Assembly (NCBI GenBank): GCA_965205025.1
Contig: CBDBFU010000007.1
Coordinates: forward strand, 166,705 to 230,704
Reading direction: 5' to 3'
Source of the DNA: Candidatus Poribacteria bacterium
GTDB lineage: Bacteria > Poribacteria > WGA-4E > WGA-3G
DNA length: 64,000 bases
A program made the translations under genes and the position numbers. This document shows, one piece after another, positions 18,804 through 61,475 of this stretch (the first letter of the stretch is position 1; every line of letters starts with the position of its first letter). The notes below the pieces were generated by a model that was not told the DNA's origin, did not search any database, and worked only from the letters and a program-made list of their open reading frames with translations.

Positions 18804-19203
18804 TACCATTTCTATAAATGATTCTCCCATGTTAGGTGATATTTACGTCTTGAAATACTACACAAACTGGATGAAGATTAATATATTAATTCGGTATTAT
18901 ACGGGTTATCGGTATTATACTGCTTAAGGATACACCTTTCGCCCCGCAAATCAACGGTATGAATGCCTTATGGCATTCACCGGGGCTTAGAATATTGGAG
19001 ATAACGACTTCAATACACATTCCGTCCCTACGGGACTCAATTATGTGGATATGTACCTTTGCTATAGACATTCCGTCCCTACGGGACTCAATACCAACCA
19101 AGTCTGGAGGTATTAGAATTACCGATTTTAAAAGTTAATCTTCATGAAGTTTGTGCTACATTAAAGAGATTTTTGTAATGGGACTTTAATTACCAAAATA
19201 GTA
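18804..19203. mobile_element. MITE, TACC family (interrupted copy)
   Basis: Near-identical to 16431-16556 apart from a central insertion; TTA flanks. Confidence 0.8.
18871..19145. mobile_element. IS630-derived MITE (ATGAAG ends) carrying REP cluster
   Basis: Ends ATGAAGATTAATATATTAATTCGGTA / TTACCGATTTTAAAAGTTAATCTTCAT resemble the TIR of the IS at 43124. Confidence 0.85.
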
Positions 19204-20651: not shown

Positions 20652-20773
20652 CAGGGCTTACACAACTTAATTAGAAAAAGGTAAAATTTGACTTAAAAAG
20701 CCGTCATTTCGTTGTTTTAACCCCCTAAATCCCCCTTATCAGGGGGACTTTAAGATGAAATGCGTAAGTCCTG
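20652..20773. mobile_element. MITE, CAGGACTTACGCA family
   Basis: TIR CAGGGCTTACACA/TGCGTAAGTCCTG, internal CCCCCTTATCAGGGGG hairpin; inverted near-copy at 45756-45878. Confidence 0.78.
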
Positions 20774-23713: not shown

Positions 23714-24026
23714 ATACACCTTTCGCCCCTCTGGGGCTTGATCGGTGGAGTTACACCGTTTTCTACAAACCTTTCGCCCCGCTGGGGCTTAGTGTTTAGG
23801 ATTTGTACGTTTTCTATACACCTTTCGCCCCTCTGGGGCTTGATCGGTGGAGTTACACCGTTTTCTACAAACCTTTCGCCCCGCTGGGGCTTAGTGTTTA
23901 GGATTTGTACGTTTTCTATACACCTTTCGCCCCTCTGGGGCTTGATCGGTGGAGTTACACCGTTTTCTACAAACCTTTCGCCCCGCGAATCAACGGTATG
24001 AATGCGCGTATGGCATTCCCCGGGGC
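23714..24026 (+). repeat. Tandem REP array (ACACCTTTCGCCCC(G/T)CTGGGGC), 6 units, alternating linkers
   Basis: ~51-52 bp units, 103-bp higher-order period; last unit carries the 35-bp element. Confidence 0.88.
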
Positions 24027-25404: not shown

Positions 25405-25551
25405 TACCATTTTTAATTGATGATTACTCATTACTAATTGAAGAAACCCCCTAAAGAATCAACGGTATGAATGCCTTAGGGCATTCCCCGCCCCTTATCA
25501 GGGGGACTTCTAAGAGTGATCGTAATGTGAACTGTTTAAATAGAAATGGTA
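25405..25551. mobile_element. MITE, TACC family, containing the 35-bp element
   Basis: TACCATTTTT...AGAAATGGTA with TAA flanks; 35-bp element at 25456-25490. Confidence 0.75.
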
Positions 25552-28128: not shown

Positions 28129-28540
28129 TACCATTTTTATAGATTATTGTCTCATTAGGCGATTTTTATGGTAGTCATTTTTAGGTCACAAACTGAATGA
28201 AGATTAATATATTAATTCGGTATTATACGGGTTAAGGATACACCTTTCGCCCCGCAAATCAACGGTATGAATGCCTTATGGCATTCACCGGGGCTTAGGT
28301 TTAGTGGTTTAGTACGTTTTCTACACACCTTTCGCCCCGCAAATCAACGGTATGAATGCCTTATGGCATTCACCGGGGCTTAGGATATTGGTGATAACCA
28401 CTTCTATAGACATTCCGTCCCTACGGGACTCATTTGTTAATTGATCCGTTTTCTATAGACATTCCGTCCCTACGGGACTCAAAACCAATAAATCATAGTC
28501 TAAATTGACGCTAATGGTGCGGTTAGAAACCGCACCTACC
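28129..28540. mobile_element. Chimeric MITE/REP cluster
   Basis: TACC left end (28129), ATGAAG left end (28197), two 35-bp elements (28256, 28341), two GTCCCTACGGGAC hairpins, CTAAATTGACGCTAATG right end (28500-28516), GTAG REP. Confidence 0.75.
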
Positions 28541-30168: not shown

Positions 30169-30683
30169 CAGGACTTACGCAATACCTCTTAAAGTCCCCC
30201 TGACATGGGGTGTGTAATGTCCTAAGGCATTCCCGGGAAACCGCACATACCGGGTAGGAGGGAACTCCGATTCCCGACTCTTCCATTCTTCCGCGTATTC
30301 CGCGATTCAGAATACGTTTCTACACACCTTTCGCCCCGCGAATCAACGGTATGAACGCCTTTTTGGCGTTCCCCCGGGGCTTGGGCCTTGGGGATGTATG
30401 GCGTTTCTACACACCTTTCGCCCCGCTGGGGCTTGGACCTTGGGGATGTATGGCGTTTCTACACACCTTTCGCCCCGCTGGGGCTATACTTATTCTCTGC
30501 GTAATCCGAGATTTAGAAAAAACGCCTCTTTGTACCACAAACTTTTAGTTTGTGATCTTACACCAAACCCTCTGATCTGCGTAATCCGCGATTCAGACAA
30601 CCAACAACTAAAACTAACCTATATAGACATTCCGTCCCTACCAAAATTGCCGAATTAAAAAATTAATCTTCATTTAGCATTCC
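30169..30683 (+). repeat. Composite repeat cluster
   Basis: CAGGACTTACGCA left end, GTAG REP (30254), three GCCCC/GGGGC REPs (one with insertion at 30340-30376), 9-bp repeats, orphan IS630 right end at ~30646-30673. Confidence 0.75.
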
Positions 30684-36044: not shown

Positions 36045-36301
36045 ACACATTCTGTAGGAGCAACCTCCTGATCGCGATATTATAGACACATTCTGTAGGA
36101 GCAACCTCCTGGTAGCGATAGTAAGGACGCATTTTTAAATAGGTAATTCTAATTCCCCAAACACGGTATGTATTGAGTCCCGTAGGGACGGAATGTCTAT
36201 AGAAAACGGATCAATTAACCGTATGAGTCCCGTAGGGACGGAATGTCTATATCAACATAGGGAATGACTAAATGGCATTCATACCGTTGATTCCTTGATT
36301 T
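36045..36301. repeat. GTAG REP pair, GTCCCGTAGGGAC REP pair and reverse 35-bp element
   Basis: GTAGGAGCAACCTCC x2 (40-bp period); GAGTCCCGTAGGGACGGAATGTCTATA x2; 36260-36293. Confidence 0.75.
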
Positions 36302-42938: not shown

Positions 42939-43123
42939 AAACTTCAGATTAACCCTTGTTGATATGGCATTCCCCCGGGGCTAACCCTCTTCTCCGTGTA
43001 ATCCGCGTAATCCGCGATTCAGAATACGTTTCTACACACCTTTCGCCCCGCTGGGGCTTTTACTGGAAGGTTCAACGTTTTCTACACACCTTTCGCCCCT
43101 CGAATCAACGGTATGAATGCCAT

Positions 43124-44364
43124 ATGAAGATTAATTTTTTAATTCGGTAAATTTTATTTTTGTGCTATCCTCTTGTTCAAGGAGGTATTTATTCATGGCA
43201 AAACATCATAAACTTGAACTCAGTGAAACTGAACGACAAAAACTCGTTGAACTCCGTGATAAAGGCGAACCGGCTTATCTACGAGAACGCGCTGCTGCCC
43301 TTTTGAAAATAAGCGAGGGGTTTTCCCCTCACAAAGTCGCCCGAAAAATGCTCTTGAAAGAACGCGATCCTGATACGGTCTATTCGTGGCTTCACCGATA
43401 CAATGAAAACGGTATTCAAGGTTTATTCTATACACCCGGTCGTGGTCGCAAACCTGCTTATTCCCCTAAATCCCCCGAAGAAGCAGAGGCGGAGGTCTAT
43501 AATACTATCGCACAGGGACCTGAACAACATAATCCGCATCAAACACGATGGACACTCCGATCCCTTGGAAACATCGTCCCTTGGCTCAGTGATGTGTCTG
43601 TGCCGGGTATTCACAAAATCCTTAGTCGACTCGGTCTCAGCTATAAACGCGCTCGCTTATACATACATAGTCCGGATACAGACTATGCCCAAAAAATAGA
43701 CAGGGTCCAGCAAGTTTTGGAAGAGACCCGTCAACATCCACAGACCTGTGTTGCGCTTTACCAAGATGAGTTCTCGTTTTATCGCAACCCTACCATAGCA
43801 AAAGACTGGGCACAAACAGGCACGAAAACACCTTTAGCCCGTCAGAGCTACAGACACAACCAAACGTGCTATGGGATCGGGGCTCTGAACCCACATACTG
43901 GAGATGTTGTTTACCAGCAAGTTTCACGCTGCACTGCTGAAGCACTTCATTCTTTTTACACCGAGATTTGCCAACGCTACGCAAACAAGCAACGGATATA
44001 TTTGATACAAGACAATTGGTCAACCCACTTTCAAGCTAACTTATTGGAAGCACTTCTCCCGCAAACAGCATCGTTTGTGAAACCGAAGCCACCGAATTGG
44101 ACAGGTAAACCCTCAGAGAAAATCGGAACACTACAAAAACTTCCGATTGAGATAATACAACTACCGACTTATGCGCCGTGGACGAACCCGATTGAAAAGT
44201 TATGGCGATGGGTGCGTCAATCGGTTTTACATAACCATCGTCATTGCGATGATTGGGAAATCGTGAAAGACAAGGTGATTAGTTTTATGTCGCAGTTCAT
44301 AGGAGGATCACAGATGCTGCTACGCCAGATCGGATTATTACCGAATTAAAAAATTAATCTTCAT
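43124..44364 (+). mobile_element. IS630-family insertion sequence (1241 bp)
   Basis: Perfect 27-bp TIR ATGAAGATTAATTTTTTAATTCGGTAA; single transposase ORF. Confidence 0.92.
43195..44349 (+). CDS. IS630-family DDE transposase
   Basis: HTH, GRGRKP, RWT, YQDE, IQDN, LPTYAPWTNPIEKLW; AGGAGG RBS. Confidence 0.93.
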   Translation: MAKHHKLELSETERQKLVELRDKGEPAYLRERAAALLKISEGFSPHKVARKMLLKERDPDTVYSWLHRYNENGIQGLFYTPGRGRKPAYSPKSPEEAEAEVYNTIAQGPEQHNPHQTRWTLRSLGNIVPWLSDVSVPGIHKILSRLGLSYKRARLYIHSPDTDYAQKIDRVQQVLEETRQHPQTCVALYQDEFSFYRNPTIAKDWAQTGTKTPLARQSYRHNQTCYGIGALNPHTGDVVYQQVSRCTAEALHSFYTEICQRYANKQRIYLIQDNWSTHFQANLLEALLPQTASFVKPKPPNWTGKPSEKIGTLQKLPIEIIQLPTYAPWTNPIEKLWRWVRQSVLHNHRHCDDWEIVKDKVISFMSQFIGGSQMLLRQIGLLPN

Positions 44365-44491
44365 TAGGCATTCCCCGGGGCTCAATTATGGGTATACACG
44401 TTTTCTATAGACATTCCGTCCCTACGGGACTAACACTCTTCTCCGCGTAATCCGTGTAATCCGTGTAATCCGAGATTCAGACAACCCATCC

Positions 44492-55813: not shown

Positions 55814-56716
55814 TTATGGAGACCGTCGTGTACGTTTAGGTCTCTTTTTCTGGCGGGGTTGACGCTGTGGTCTTTGTTCTCCATCGCCTATTGTCTCAGG
55901 CTCAGCTGAAAGTTGTGCTTCGTCTAATATCTGTGCTGTCTGCTCCTCATGTCGTTCCGTTTCAGCAACTTTATCTATCTGATCTGAATCTGCTTCAGTC
56001 GTCTCAACTTCCTCCTCAACCTGTTCACCTTCTAATGCGTCGCCACGTCCTTCAATTACGGCTTCTGCTAACACAGAACAAATTAACCGTATTGAACGGA
56101 TAGCATCATCATTCCCAGGAATCGGCAGGTCAATTGGATCAGGATCACAATTTGTATCAACAATAGCAATAATTGGAATATTCAGCTTATTCGCTTCAGC
56201 AATAGCTGTATGTTCTTTACGAGTATCTGTGACAATAACAACCTCAGGAAGAGTCGGCATGTCTTTAATGCCTGATAAGTTGTTAGATAACTTCCCTTTT
56301 TCGCGCCGCAACCGTATGATCTCTTTTTTTGGACGCTTGTCAATTTCACCACTTGTTTCTAAGGCATCAAGTTCCTCAAGTCTTTTGATACTTTGCCGAA
56401 TCGTTTGATAATTCGTTAACATTCCACCAAGCCACCGATGGTTAACATAATACATACTACTTCGAACGGCTTCTTCAACAACGGCTTCTTGAGATTGTCG
56501 TTTTGTACCAACAAAGAGAACTGCTCCACCATTTGCAGCCACTGTTTGTACATATTCTACTGCCGTCTCAAGCATTCGCAAAGTCTTCTGCAAATCAATA
56601 ATATAAATACCATTCCGTTCTGCGAAGATGTATTCAGCCATCTTCGGATTCCAACGTCGGGTCTGATGACCAAAGTGAACTCCACATTCAAGGAGTTCTT
56701 TCATTGTAACTGCCAA
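55814..56716 (-). CDS. rpsB: 30S ribosomal protein S2
   Basis: [32 protein letters not shown]; TTG start after AGGAGG. Confidence 0.97.
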
Positions 56717-56729
56717 AAAATACCTCCTG

Positions 56730-56840
56730 GTTAGAAGAAGTCTTAGGACTTCCCATTGGGTTTGTGCTTCCATCTTCTTCACATCAGCATCAGACTCCAG
56801 AGAAGGAGAACCCTCTGTGCAAATCAGAAGATGTGTCTAT
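56730..56840 (-). promoter_or_regulatory. Probable structured rpsB leader
   Basis: CATCTTC...GAAGATG outer stem with inner hairpins in the 5' UTR; autoregulation is inferred from rpsB leaders in other bacteria. Confidence 0.45.
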
Positions 56841-57103
56841 GTAAATATAGTTGTAACGCCTTTGCAATTTTTGTAATTATACCATGAATCAATAGGGCAT
56901 GCAACTTTTTCTCTGTCTACAAAAGGTATAAGAACAGTATTATCTTCCTCTTCTGTAGGAGGGAACTCCGATTCCCGACTCTTACATTCCTCCGTGTAAT
57001 CCGCGATTCAGAATACGTTTTTATACACCTTTCGCCCCGCTGGGGCTTACTTCATATGTTCCACGTTTTCTACACACATTCCGCCCCTCTGGGGCTGTTC
57101 TTA

Positions 57104-57254: not shown

Positions 57255-57719
57255 TACTATTGTTTGGACATTTTCTGAGAGGTGCTTCACCTATTTCTAA
57301 TTGTTTCTGGTTTTTAGCCACGTTTCTCACGCCAATCTAACTCTGAGAAAAATCAACTTAGATGGATAAAAGCGTAGTCCGGGGAATGCTAAATGAAGTT
57401 AAAGAATTTATTCGGGTAATTTCCAGTTTCTTGTAGAATCCGGTACGGTGAATCAACGGTATGAATGCCATAAGGCATTCCCCGGGAAACCGCACCTACC
57501 AGCTCTGGGTCCAAATTACCTATTTTATTTTTTTAACTTCATATAGCATTCATACCGTTGATTCCTTGATTTGAGGGCAAAATGTGTGTAGAAGTGCCAT
57601 ACCTGCAGCATGCCCAAGCCCCAGAGGGGCGAAAGGTTTGTAGAAACGTCATGCCTTCACAATACCCAAGCCCCAGAGGGGCGAAAGGTGTATCGCTCAA
57701 AACTGCCCAAACTATAGTA
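57255..57719. mobile_element. MITE, CTAT family with nested insertions
   Basis: Homologous to 24071-24291; contains reverse 35-bp element (57380-57564) split by an ATGAAG MITE (57393-57542) that holds another 35-bp element (57450-57484). Confidence 0.82.
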
Positions 57720-57912
57720 TACTATAACATATTCTCTTCATCCGCAATTCTGAAAAGAAAACCATCCACTCAAAAACCCTCTCCTCCGTGTAATCCGTGT
57801 AATCCGTGTAATCCGCGATTCAGACAACCCTCCCTTCCATTTGATCTGTTTACTTATTTCGTTAAATCATTAAAATATGTAACAACCGTAATTTGTGGAC
57901 TTAGGTTTCAAT

Positions 57913-59000: not shown

Positions 59001-59205
59001 CATAGGCGTCAATTTAGTGGTTTTCCCAGGCCGGTAGGTAGCGATTTCCCGGGGAATGCTAAATAGCATTCATACCGTTGATTCATCGCACTGGATCCTT
59101 CGCGAAAAACTTTATGAACGCATTGGAACAAACCCGGTTCGGTTAGGAAACCGAACCTACCGACCTGAAATTTATAGCGTACTTCTCCTTAAATTGACGC
59201 CTATA
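59001..59205. mobile_element. MITE, CATAGGCGTCAATTTA family with 19-bp target duplication
   Basis: TIR CATAGGCGTCAATTTA/TAAATTGACGCCTATA; GATCGTTTATTAAAATAAC at 58982-59000 and 59206-59224. Confidence 0.85.
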
Positions 59206-59235
59206 GATCGTTTATTAAAATAACAAACTAAAACA

Positions 59236-59646
59236 TTATTTATCTTCAGTTAATATTGCAGACTGAAGTCTCAATAAAAACTCTTCTACCTCCGGCGTAG
59301 ACGGTTTAACTTTCTCAACAGATAAACCAGGTCCTTGAAATTTCTTTTGATAAGAATTTAGGGTGTCATAGAGTATGATAAGGTCAATTTGCCTATTATC
59401 AATTGCATTTCGAATCTGTTGAAATTGTGATTCTATTGTGTCTTGGGATATACCATCAGGACGACTATCTTGAATTGATTTCTCAATGTTGTTTAACGCT
59501 CTCCCCGCTGTCCAATAATGTAACCCCTCTTTGCCACCAACTCTATTGTATAGAAATGCTCCTGCGGCAAAACCTAAAATGAGGATTGAAATTAGAAATA
59601 TAAGGACACGACGATAACATCCGCTAATCTTATCTGCTATTGACAT
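59236..59646 (-). CDS. Hypothetical membrane-anchored protein
   Basis: N-terminal TM helix; start abuts the stop of the upstream gene. Confidence 0.72.
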   Translation of the reverse strand: MSIADKISGCYRRVLIFLISILILGFAAGAFLYNRVGGKEGLHYWTAGRALNNIEKSIQDSRPDGISQDTIESQFQQIRNAIDNRQIDLIILYDTLNSYQKKFQGPGLSVEKVKPSTPEVEEFLLRLQSAILTEDK

Positions 59647-60765
59647 CTATAATACATTTCCTTCGCGTATCGTTAATACAGGTTCAATTTTCTGAGATCC
59701 GATGAACTTGGTATCATGGGCATCAAAGAATTCATACTCCCCATCAACTATATCTAATATTGCAATATCAGCAATACCACCTATTCTTAGATTTCCCATA
59801 ACGTCCTCACGTTTTATCGCTTTAGCAGCATTAAACGTAGCCTTCTCAATCACCTCTTCAAAAGTAAGACCAAGATGCATTAACTTAGATAAGGTTGTAG
59901 GCAGATCGTATACCGGTCCATCTATATTTCCAGTATGTAAATCCGTACTGATAACATCGGAAATAAAGCCTTGCTCCATGGCACGTTGTGCTACTTCATA
60001 GTGGAAACTGCCGCCACCGTGTCCCACATCAAAGATCACACCATCATTTCGCGCTTTCCACGCTTCCGGAATTACATTTCCTTTCTCATCCACTATATTA
60101 TCACCATTCCCTTGAAAACAGTGCGTAATAACATCACCCGGTCTCATGAGTTCCAAAACATCAGGTAATGGAACACCTTGTCCAATATGACACATAACTG
60201 GTGTATCTGCTTGTTCTGCAGCCCGAATGGCGAGTTTTAAGGGTTCAACCCCATTATCCCCAACCTGCATTTTCCCTTGACGCACTTTAACGCCTACAGT
60301 AATATCACGATTTGCAATGAGCGTATCAGCCACACGATCTGGATCTGCGTAGGCAAGATCGTGTATTTCACCTACAGGTCCATAGATAAGTCCAATTCCA
60401 GAGATATGAACATAATTGAGTATATTCGTCTGTGCTGGTTCAGAGATGAATTCCTTGAATCCAGGGAAAGATGCCCAACTTGCGCTACCCGCATCTACAA
60501 CAGTTGTTGTTCCTGTATTCGTACAGACATCGTCTGCCCGTATACCCCACGTAGTTACACCATAATACACATGGGTATGTATATCAATCAAGCCGGGGGT
60601 GACATATTTATGCCTTATAGGTATTGTTTGTTTGGCAAGGTCTTTCGGAATATCGTCCGCAATTGCTGCTATCAAACCATGAGAAATAGCAATATCTGTA
60701 ATTTTATTTAACCCTTGTGCAGGATCTACTACAGTTCCACCTTTGAGCAAGATATCATATTTCAC
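59647..60765 (-). CDS. Amidohydrolase (dihydroorotase/deacetylase-like)
   Basis: PGLIDIHTH, GTTTVVDAGS, K, MCH, THCF, DVGHGGGSF, ISTDLH. Confidence 0.92.
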   Translation of the reverse strand: MKYDILLKGGTVVDPAQGLNKITDIAISHGLIAAIADDIPKDLAKQTIPIRHKYVTPGLIDIHTHVYYGVTTWGIRADDVCTNTGTTTVVDAGSASWASFPGFKEFISEPAQTNILNYVHISGIGLIYGPVGEIHDLAYADPDRVADTLIANRDITVGVKVRQGKMQVGDNGVEPLKLAIRAAEQADTPVMCHIGQGVPLPDVLELMRPGDVITHCFQGNGDNIVDEKGNVIPEAWKARNDGVIFDVGHGGGSFHYEVAQRAMEQGFISDVISTDLHTGNIDGPVYDLPTTLSKLMHLGLTFEEVIEKATFNAAKAIKREDVMGNLRIGGIADIAILDIVDGEYEFFDAHDTKFIGSQKIEPVLTIREGNVL

Positions 60766-60899
60766 TTAAACACCCTAATCAGTAATATTGAACCTATTAT
60801 TTGCGGCATTGAAATAAGGATATTGGCAGTAATAATTAGCCCAGATTGATTGTAGGAATTTGAACTTCTTTTTCCCTAAAATTTACTCTCATATACTCG

Positions 60900-61432
60900 G
60901 TAGGTGCTGTTTCTAACTGCACTATAGGCGTCAATTTAGGATACACCTTTCGCCCCGCGAATCAACGGTATGAATGACATTTAGTCATTCCCCGGGGCTT
61001 AGTGTTTTGTGTTTATTACGTTTTCTACAAACCTTTCGCCCCGCGAATCAACGGTATGAATGCCTTATGGCATTCACCGGGGCTTGGGATATTGGTGATA
61101 ACCACTTCTATAGACATTCCGTCCCTACCAAATCAAGGAATCAACGGTATGAACGCCTTTTGGCGTTCACCGGGTATGAATGCCATTTAGGCATTCCCCG
61201 GGACTCAAAACCAATAAATCATAGTCTAAATTGACGCTAATAGTGCGATTTCCTAATCGCACTGGATCCTTCGCGAAAAACTTTATGAACGCAATTGGAA
61301 CAAACCCGGTTCGGTGAATCAACGGTATGAATGCCATTAGGCATTCCCCGGGAAACCGAACCTACCGACCTGAAATTTATAGCGTACTTCTCCTTAAATT
61401 GACGCCTATGGTGCGGTTTCCTAACCGAACCG
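60900..61432. mobile_element. Composite CATAGG-family MITE(s) with REP cargo and four 35-bp elements
   Basis: Left TIR at 60923, right TIRs ending 61242 and 61410; 35-bp elements at 60959, 61045, 61138, 61316. Confidence 0.8.
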
Positions 61433-61475
61433 AATACAATTGACTGATTTATCAAACTTACGTTATTACTTAGTA

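Follow-up and report, generated by a model that had tools for sequence, protein, structure and literature searches.

Among described repeats, the closest to the element reported here appear to be the SDRs (small dispersed repeats) of the Nostocaceae. SDR1-8, attributed to Elhai et al. in 2008 (Genome Res 18:1484), are reportedly very short, at 21-27 nt; their hairpins are said to be kept by compensatory changes, the repeats are said to be nested in themselves and embedded in short tandem repeats and mini-transposons, and an RNA intermediate was reportedly proposed for them. Here we describe a unit of ~35 nt, the 35-mer, that recurs in a 64,000-nucleotide stretch of the genome of a Candidatus Poribacteria bacterium, very probably a sponge symbiont (GenBank assembly GCA_965205025.1, contig CBDBFU010000007.1, positions 166,705 to 230,704; this whole 64-kb stretch is the window, and positions given without a contig are window positions). 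We liken it to the SDRs by their described behavior, not by sequence. We consider it probable that the 35-mer is an insertion module of very small size, non-autonomous and mobilized in trans by a DNA enzyme, the poribacterial counterpart of the SDRs, and we place it as a second-phylum case of a known, mechanistically unsolved kind. A search of the literature on poribacterial intergenic and palindromic repeats found no description of this element among the papers listed. Regarding the SDRs themselves, a passage of PMC4390886 places SDR5 between nucleotides 3 and 4 of the palindrome HIP1, a passage of PMC5861425 gives no SDR-like repeat outside Nostocaceae among the HIP1-rich cyanobacteria it examined, and a passage of PMC13756078 still has the function of SDR5 as unknown in October 2026.

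The genome that contains the window (G000) is a 5.66-Mb draft in 33 contigs, with 38.5% G+C and 95.5% completeness, and it holds ~270 copies of the 35-mer: 273 hairpin units were counted, and the 14-nt core has 285 matches with at most one mismatch. Within the window, the motif GAATCAACGGTATGAATGCC matches 15 times (up to three mismatches), when 0.01 matches are expected and 15 was reached in none of 100 shuffles. A preliminary description of the window had listed about 15 copies, and all 15 places do hold the unit, two of them split by larger insertions in the loop. In public genomes, an exact 17-mer of the unit is found in at least 85 stretches, nearly all labelled Candidatus Poribacteria, the remainder being isolated matches in other taxa. 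Compared with the SDRs, the 35-mer occurs in another phylum, is longer (35-36 nt, its hairpin unit alone being 27 nt), has a layout of 7-nt tail and hairpin, and sits in REP-like (repetitive extragenic palindromic) hairpins and in hairpins of MITEs (miniature transposable elements with inverted repeats) instead of HIP1.

The unit reads R-AATCAAC-GG-TAT-GAATGCC-loop-GGCATTC-C-CCG, that is, a 7-nt tail (RAATCAA) and a 28-nt hairpin that is closed by a CGG/CCG helix and continues through a TAT/C internal loop and a 7-bp stem to an AT-rich loop of 4-5 nt. Folded as single-stranded DNA it is predicted to form the hairpin and leave the tail free, at -7.3 kcal/mol versus -2.3 for shuffles (z = -3.3). 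Among the 273 units, the most frequent stems are GAATGCC/GGCATTC (101), GAATGCT/AGCATTC (84) and GAATGAC/GTCATTC (17), followed by GAACGCC/GGCGTTC (14) and GAATGTC/GACATTC (5), so that the three variants GAACGCC, GAATGAC and GAATGCT already singled out in the preliminary description are real and compensated. When 56 distinct units, taken from the window and other species, were aligned, changes on both sides were seen in four of the seven main-helix pairs, amounting to 15 cells, a value reached in none of 500 shuffles, with 98.2% of the cells paired; the outer helix never varies and is therefore uninformative on pairing. A compensated hairpin is a first likeness to the SDRs. Stem mismatches of the wobble type are about as frequent in either sense (GT+TG 19 versus AC+CA 15 among the 273 units), hence nothing indicates selection of the hairpin as RNA, and in this lack of a G:U signal pointing to RNA the 35-mer differs from the SDRs.

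Around this core the element is modular, with zero to four octamers (RAATCAAG) ahead of the leader and one to five 27-nt hairpin units behind it; other species have a hexamer as the tail repeat. The strict pattern fits 243 units in the genome, of which 198 follow the leader, 36 stand in tandem after another unit and nine do neither. Arrays are direct, without inverted doublets, and the unit also nests in its own loop. Self-nesting, tandem octamers or hexamers and residence inside MITEs are further traits that the 35-mer has in common with the SDRs. The BOX elements of Streptococcus pneumoniae (boxA-boxB(n)-boxC) and the BIMEs (bacterial interspersed mosaic elements) of E. coli are modular intergenic repeats with variable numbers of internal units too; the 35-mer resembles them in being modular and variable in unit count, but it has no relation to them in sequence or layout, and we know of no BOX or BIME behaving as an insert at fixed positions within other hairpins. 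A sister module combines this leader with another hairpin (AAATCAAC-GCCGAATGCGC-GTATG-GCATTCGGC-GGG); there are seven copies in the genome, for instance at C4:141895 and C2:175696, and it is common in other species (for instance at loci L014, L027, L038 and L055). It lies mostly directly behind a 35-mer, and a 35-mer is often nested in its loop as a clean insertion, CAAATCAAC...CCCC.

That the 35-mer is a discrete unit can be seen in the repeats that carry it. A 178-nt compound MITE with TAGGCGTCAATTTAG ends contains three REP-like hairpins, two of a type that we call REP-a and one of a type that we call REP-b. It is empty at C22:23536 and C5:46502, holds one insert in the second REP-a at C20:52886, one insert in REP-b at C18:19607, and has all three hairpins filled at C14:338657 and in the window copy (60924..61240, C7:227628, 316 nt); the copies are nearly identical outside the inserts. 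Likewise, a 168-nt two-hairpin MITE is known from three empty copies, with hairpin 1 filled in the window copy at 59002..59205 and hairpin 2 filled at C27:61965 and in the window copy at 61229. The MITE at 59002..59205 has ends TAGGCGTCAATTTAG / CTAAATTGACGCCTA, shared with the compound MITE, and is flanked by an 18-bp direct repeat, ATCGTTTATTAAAATAAC; at the orthologous site of a relative (G004) it is absent. Since occupancy differs among near-identical host repeats, the 35-mer has been gained or lost on its own. The idea of a minimal non-autonomous mobile unit put forward in the preliminary description is therefore upheld as far as a discrete unit, independently present or absent in near-identical paralogs, is concerned; its mobilization in trans is what we infer. 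In Logan contigs from four sequencing runs, assemblies break or cross-join within these repeats, and the joints 59037>61243 and 61255>59085 link paralogous MITE copies; none of the records spans an entire 35-mer together with 31 letters to either side.

Filled sites and their empty paralogs define the junctions (below, bases between hyphens are those replaced by the unit). The two reciprocal pairs of the preliminary description are present: GCGATTTCC-TA-ATCGC is empty at 61245 and filled at 59050-59084, and GGTTCGGT-TA-GGAAACCGAACC is empty at 59136 and filled at 61316-61350. Similarly, CCCCCTAAA-TC-CCCC is empty at 20721 and filled at 25456, and empty and filled versions of CGCCCCGC-TG-GGGC were found genome-wide. 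We counted six site types across the genome: REP-a (118 empty, 27 filled), REP-b (210 and 17), GGT-TA-GGAAACCG (166 and 19), GCGAT-TA-GGAAATCGC (20 and 1), CCCCTAAA-TC-CCCC (47 and 12) and GGAAACCGC-A-CCTACC (202 and 7). An empty paralog is present for 60 of the 137 distinct flank contexts. All host sites are palindromic repeats, either REP-like hairpins or hairpins within MITEs, with the unit in the loop or at the foot, and the host stem is predicted to close still around the inserted unit (in the fold of the 61316-61350 copy, tail and hairpin are nested within the host stem). A target-site duplication was found at none of the site types when empty and filled junctions were compared genome-wide, and the unit's two ends, GAATCAAC / CATTCCCCG, do not form inverted repeats. 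On both grounds the 35-mer was rejected as a MITE of the DDE type, as the preliminary description had anticipated.

The rule that two target bases are replaced turned out to be only part of the picture. It stands for four site types, including the cases on which it was based (GGT-TA-GGA, GCGAT-TA-GGA, AAA-TC-CCC and, in the parsing of the preliminary description, GC-TG-GGGC). Two other types lose 0-1 nt, namely REP-b (TAC + CAAATCAA...CCCC + GGGAC; window 61130) and GGAAACCGC-A-CCTACC, the unit starting with CAAATCAA in both, while 2-4 nt are lost where the unit occupies the 5' foot of GTGCGGTTAGG. The 3' end of the unit is constant at the hairpin base and its first bases vary (G, A, CA or TA), and unit ends are sharp to 1-2 nt in at least ten contexts. 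Within the six site types the junction is fixed and the insert has a single orientation relative to the host repeat in 83/83 filled sites, none being reversed. An exact insertion point within a palindrome is another likeness to the SDRs, from which the 35-mer differs in that its sites lose up to 4 target nucleotides. The proposal that the unit targets structure rather than sequence needs qualification: position, junction and orientation are fixed within each repeat family, and recognition of a sequence, or spread through descent or conversion between paralogous repeats, would produce the same picture.

A constant 3' end with a variable 5' end brings retro-insertion to mind, in which a trimmed small hairpin RNA would be copied into nicked hairpin targets. 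Indeed, target-primed reverse transcription of the R2 type leaves a 2-bp target deletion and ragged 5' junctions, and retro-insertion should produce 3' junctions that are precise and 5' junctions that vary, along with small target deletions and stutter repeats at the 5' side. The tandem 6-8-mers that accompany the variable 5' end, and target losses of 0-4 nt, agree with it. However, units consisting of the hairpin with no leader are rare (the nine of 243 mentioned above), so that there is no 5' truncation series; G:U pairs are not in excess over A:C; no Rfam family is recognized at gathering scores; and no reverse transcriptase (RVT_1) match exists in this 95.5%-complete genome. The missing RVT_1 match and the missing tolerance of G:U in the stem led us to reject the 35-mer as a retroelement, and we hold retro-insertion to be very improbable indeed.

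The constancy of junction and orientation within a site type is also what one would expect if the 35-mer spread mostly passively, with no dedicated enzyme: a few illegitimate events, for example template switching, or repair, where a hairpin stalls replication or is cleaved, followed by transposition of the carrier MITEs and REPs and by gene conversion. The carrier MITEs are 98-99% identical, and the carriers have active parents, an IS4-like insertion sequence (IS) with 11 copies and IS630-family ISs with 9 and 11. One variant, GAATGCT with loop ATTT, dominates the ...CCCCGTGGTTAGGAAACC context (20+6+4 copies, with differing left flanks), and no enzyme family that we tested tracks the 35-mer. 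Against this, REP-a alone holds the stems GAATGCC, GAATGAC, GAACGCC, GAATGCG and GAATGTC, in inserts that start with G or A and end with CACC or CCCC; the same variants recur in several site types, and dozens of contexts are occupied across species; the ends are sharp, as said, in at least ten contexts; and the near-invariance of the unit across two genera, in which genes are down to 72% identical, needs a sequence-reading constraint. We thus regard mostly passive spread as unlikely, although it is the alternative we take most seriously.

The distribution of the 35-mer was studied in 151 genomes of the phylum, in which presence was scored by an exact 16-mer. It is found in 90 of them, in all 37 genomes of genus g1 and in 51 of the 57 of genus g9, at 1-424 copies per genome; elsewhere there is one single match in one of 57 genomes, from family f3. 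A narrow clade is one more trait shared with the SDRs. Orthologous genes within a genus are 72-91% identical, so a near-invariant 35-mer implies continued renewal under a sequence-reading constraint. The 35-mer is not an assembly artefact, as 90/151 genomes carry it, single-contig assemblies included. Three exact 17-mer matches in viral contigs all lack hairpin and companion repeats, and for this reason we attribute them to chance. Over 40 kb of synteny, 13 copies are found here, none in G004 (~91% identical), whose one near-match has no hairpin, and two, at other sites, in G018 (~88%). The repeat cluster at 60816-61470 (655 bp) and the MITE at 59002-59205 are absent from the relatives.

These data also bear on the idea that the unit is not mobile at all, but a host-selected protein-binding or regulatory hairpin within mosaic intergenic repeats, comparable to BIME motifs. 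The strong sequence conservation across two genera would suit such a role, as would the location of the copies, which are extragenic (5/~276 inside crude open reading frames, ORFs) and enriched in divergent spacers (77 divergent versus 33 convergent, when the genome baseline is 389 versus 387). Yet species of one genus differ in copy number from 1 to 424, no copy is held at orthologous sites in the 40-kb synteny, and the 35-mer is nested in selfish repeats and in itself and interrupted by ISs. A host-selected motif is, in our opinion, the least credible of the explanations considered, and we give it hardly any weight.

The architecture of the unit, with GTAT (compare GTAG) followed by a hairpin, is REP-like, and it raises the possibility of a REP-class element mobilized by a Y1 HUH transposase, either a RAYT (REP-associated tyrosine transposase) or an IS200-type TnpA, and cut in single-stranded DNA. 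The ends of IS200/IS605 elements and PATEs (palindrome-associated transposable elements) move by single-strand HUH transposition, are defined by hairpins and involve neither duplication nor inverted ends, and insertion of the 35-mer is in HUH style in these last two respects. In contrast, the 35-mer has one hairpin and not two, loses target bases and has no target tetra- or pentanucleotide (the last base of the left flank may be C, T, A or G, and no 4-mer is common to the flanks). It shows no replication-strand bias either, inserts being oriented +/- 51/66 where G>C and 69/85 where C>G, GC skew being a crude strand proxy on a draft genome, where genes do follow the skew (1033+1188 versus 814+564). 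The lack of a fixed target 4-mer, the loss of 0-4 nt and the lack of a strand bias exclude an IS200/IS605 derivative, in keeping with what the preliminary description had said of standard IS200/IS605 insertion. Nor is there a link to the presence of Y1 transposases: Y1_Tnp (PF01797) is found in 137/151 genomes, with no match in G001, G010 and G048, which have 97-116 copies of the 35-mer.

A REP is defined as a short 5' tag, a GTAG-type tetranucleotide, followed by a hairpin (PMC3733652), and REP or REPIN (REP doublet forming hairpins) elements are associated with RAYT transposases in passages of PMC3116915, PMC2817692 and PMC3733652. The 35-mer resembles them as a 20-40-nt extragenic hairpin with a short 5' tag, hundreds of copies and neither inverted ends nor duplication. 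REPs combine the tag GT[AG]G with an imperfect palindrome and form inverted doublets, whereas the 35-mer has GTAT, a 7-bp stem and direct tandems. The genome does encode three RAYT-like Y1 transposases (158 aa, near-identical) within 35 kb on contig C27, with inverted REP arrays alongside. The genes are flanked by REP-b arrays (TGAGTCCCGTAGGGACGGAATGTCTATAG), tandem upstream and with inverted copies downstream, which makes a classical REP-RAYT unit (L086:1160-1430 and L086:2000-2080 in this genome; also L087 and L088), and the 35-mer does not flank them. Beside the RAYT genes lie copies of a gene for a 297-aa protein with no Pfam match, the C-terminal part of which resembles Rpn-type proteins. 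RAYT orthologues occur in 94/151 genomes but were not found in six genomes with 97-424 copies of the 35-mer (G052 with 424, G017 with 305 in a single contig, G004, G048, G010 and G001), and RAYTs are present in families f2, f3 and f8, in the searched genomes of which there is no 35-mer match apart from the one 16-mer match in f3. The flanking repeats and the mismatched distribution across the 151 genomes led us to reject the RAYT as the mover, and mobilization by any Y1 HUH enzyme appears very unlikely to us. Instead, we see the 35-mer as an insert inside REPs and a parasite of them.

Other candidates fared no better. Rpn/YhgA nucleases (PF04754) are found in 117/151 genomes; we rejected them as they were not found in G004, G001, G010 and G006 and are present in families with no 35-mer match. 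TnpB and IS110 have no match in the 95.5%-complete genome. The Y2_Tnp profile had no match, but its control had no match anywhere either. The preliminary description had noted no mobilizing enzyme in the window, and our searches of neighboring and bracketed genes agree. No gene is regularly found next to the 35-mer in 85 loci of other species, where the ORF clusters are all of common paralog families (oxidoreductases, sigma-factor-linked, LamG-like, sulfatases) and keep to no set position relative to it; in G000, the ORFs bracketed by two 35-mers are 14 ordinary genes or ISs only. When we looked for a long autonomous form, with the leader at its start and the 3' half-hairpin at its end, as the preliminary description had envisaged, we found only ISs or MITEs within the loop, in either orientation. 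The genome has five resident ISs, two of the IS630 family, one IS4-like and two others, with ends (ATGAAGATTAAT..., TATAGTGACCATCAG..., TAGGCGTCAATTT..., CAATACCTTCGCC..., ...TAAGTCCTG) that are all unlike the 35-mer. For the ISs found in this genome, we therefore discarded the notion, which the preliminary description had left standing, that the unit is the footprint or the fused ends of a known IS; the long inserts between unit halves are the loop ISs and MITEs just mentioned.

Taken together, the sharp ends, the conservation across genera, the compensated upper stem and the lack of an RNA signature or a reverse transcriptase match lead us to prefer an enzyme acting on DNA. We propose that the 35-mer moves at the DNA level, through a trans-acting enzyme that would read the invariant tail and the base of the hairpin and tolerate any paired upper stem. 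This enzyme would place the module with fixed polarity into the hairpins of other repeats, and the composite carriers may then disseminate it when they transpose or when paralogs undergo gene conversion. Several points weigh against this proposal. No enzyme was found in our searches, and movement in trans is deduced from the behavior of the unit. Constant junction and orientation per family of host repeat also fit a few founding insertions spread passively, and the number of independent insertions is uncertain because MITE amplification or gene conversion could have multiplied such founders. Gain is indistinguishable from precise loss, and the 40-kb comparison between genomes offered no shared host repeat with an orthologous site filled in one genome and empty in another, since the relatives lack the whole repeat clusters. 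The invariance of tail and lower stem in the alignment is, for the rows from other species, by construction, as these were recruited by an exact 17-mer. Finally, junctions vary among site types (losses of 0-4 nt; first bases G, A, CA or TA), and such variety is not obviously predicted by a single clean cut-and-paste chemistry. More tentatively, and with clearly less confidence than we place in the module itself, we suggest that the 35-mer and the SDRs may exemplify one unrecognized route of moving DNA, in which an enzyme acting in trans splices a tail-hairpin of 20-35 nt into the loop or foot of a hairpin, with fixed polarity and no duplication. That enzyme would lie outside the families tested here (Y1 HUH, reverse transcriptase, TnpB, IS110 and Rpn).

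The copies in the window illustrate most of these arrangements. REP-a hairpins hold 35-nt units on the plus strand at 18948..18982, with an A-type start, at 28256..28290 and at 28341..28375, and a 36-nt unit with stem GAACGCC/GGCGTTC at 30340..30375 (+). Another 36-nt unit is found at 23987..24022 (+), and the 35-nt unit at 25456..25490 (+) lies in CCCCCTAAA..CCCCTTATCAGGGGG, with its empty paralog at 20721. At 36260..36301 there is a decayed minus-strand unit with one octamer (unit span 36260-36293). The REP-a unit at 43102-43123 + 44365-44377 (+) is split in its loop by an IS630-family IS (43124-44364). The minus-strand unit at 57380..57572, bearing one octamer, is split in its loop by a MITE (halves 57380-57391 + 57544-57564), and a 35-nt unit lies inside that MITE at 57450-57484 (+). 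In the two-hairpin MITE, the 35-nt unit at 59050..59084 (-), with stem GAATGCT/AGCATTC, occupies hairpin 1 (GCGATTTCC..ATCGC), for which empty paralogs are found at 61245, C10:48318, C7:146232 and C20:99640. The compound MITE holds a 36-nt unit with stem GAATGAC/GTCATTC in the first REP-a loop (CGCCCCGC..GGGGCTT) at 60959..60994 (+), a 35-nt unit in the second REP-a hairpin at 61045..61079 (+), and an extended unit in the REP-b loop (CGTCCCTAC..GGGACTC) at 61130..61200 (+), in the order AAATCAAG octamer, leader and two 27-nt hairpin units (GAACGCC, then GAATGCC). The last copy, a 35-nt unit at 61316..61350 (+), sits in hairpin 2 (GGTTCGGT..GGAAACCGAACC) of the paralogous MITE part, with its empty paralog at 59136.

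ISs that insert into REP hairpins have been described (Tobes and Pareja, 2006, as cited in PMC3116915), among them IS1397 (also cited there) and ISPpu9 (PMC12288879). Palindromic repeats are landing pads for the IS630-family and IS4-like ISs of this genome as well, which also enter the loop of the 35-mer; the described REP-inserting ISs are autonomous, 1-2 kb long and carry transposase genes, whereas the 35-mer is noncoding. The IS630-family IS at 43124-44364 encodes a 385-aa DDE_3 transposase and has ends ATGAAGATTAATTTTTTAATTCGGTAA; its site is a 35-mer loop, and that 35-mer is itself inside a REP-a hairpin, a three-deep nesting. At least eight of the nine genome copies of this IS are in 35-mer loops, in either orientation. 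Its MITEs (~120-150 bp) also occupy CACAAACT..AGTTTGTG palindromes and GGTTTCCTAACC hairpins, in the loops of both, seemingly with no clear TA duplication. The second IS630-family IS, at C28:30767 (276 aa, HTH_Tnp_IS630 + DDE_3, ends TATAGTGACCATCAG...), has a 35-mer's ATTTA loop as its site and shows an ordinary TA duplication. The IS4-like IS encodes a 454-aa transposase, has ends TAGGCGTCAATTT and is present at C13:314123, C32:143066 and nine more places; it is likely the parent of the MITEs that carry the 35-mer. Its insertions are flanked by direct repeats of ~18-20 bp, often a whole GGTGCGGTTAGGAAACCGCACC hairpin, as with the 18-bp repeat of the MITE at 59002-59205. Each insertion thus duplicates the hairpin that the 35-mer later occupies. 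The insert that splits the minus-strand unit at 57380-57572 is MITE-like, ~150 bp long, with ends ATGAAGTTAAAG.../...TTAACTTCAT, and holds the 57450-57484 copy in its own internal hairpin. Tandem 8-nt runs (CCGTGTAAT, as in CTCCGTGTAATCCGTGTAATCCGTGTAATCCGCGATTCAGA), which belong to another repeat family, mark the edges of repeat clusters at 44440-44480, 57000-57010 and 57770-57810. Unrelated to the 35-mer, a gene at 55814-56782 encodes ribosomal protein S2 with a C-terminal extension of ~90 aa, acidic and basic, that ends in a Lys/Arg-rich tail.

The one earlier description of very small hairpin repeats that seemingly insert themselves dates from 2008 and concerns Nostocaceae. Finding SDR-like behavior in a second, unrelated lineage means that the phenomenon is not a cyanobacterial oddity. 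It also makes it tractable: at least 88 sequenced species in two genera have the 35-mer, at 1-424 copies, beside sister genera with no match, and with such a contrast phylogenetic profiling could name the enzyme, while the sharp, site-type-specific junctions provide an assayable substrate and target. For the sponge symbionts, the 35-mer accounts for part of the dense load of nested repeats in their genomes, a load that fragments assemblies and can mislead annotation. If the 35-mer and the SDRs do follow one route, no smaller mobile units would be known, and they would act as hyperparasites of REPs and MITEs.

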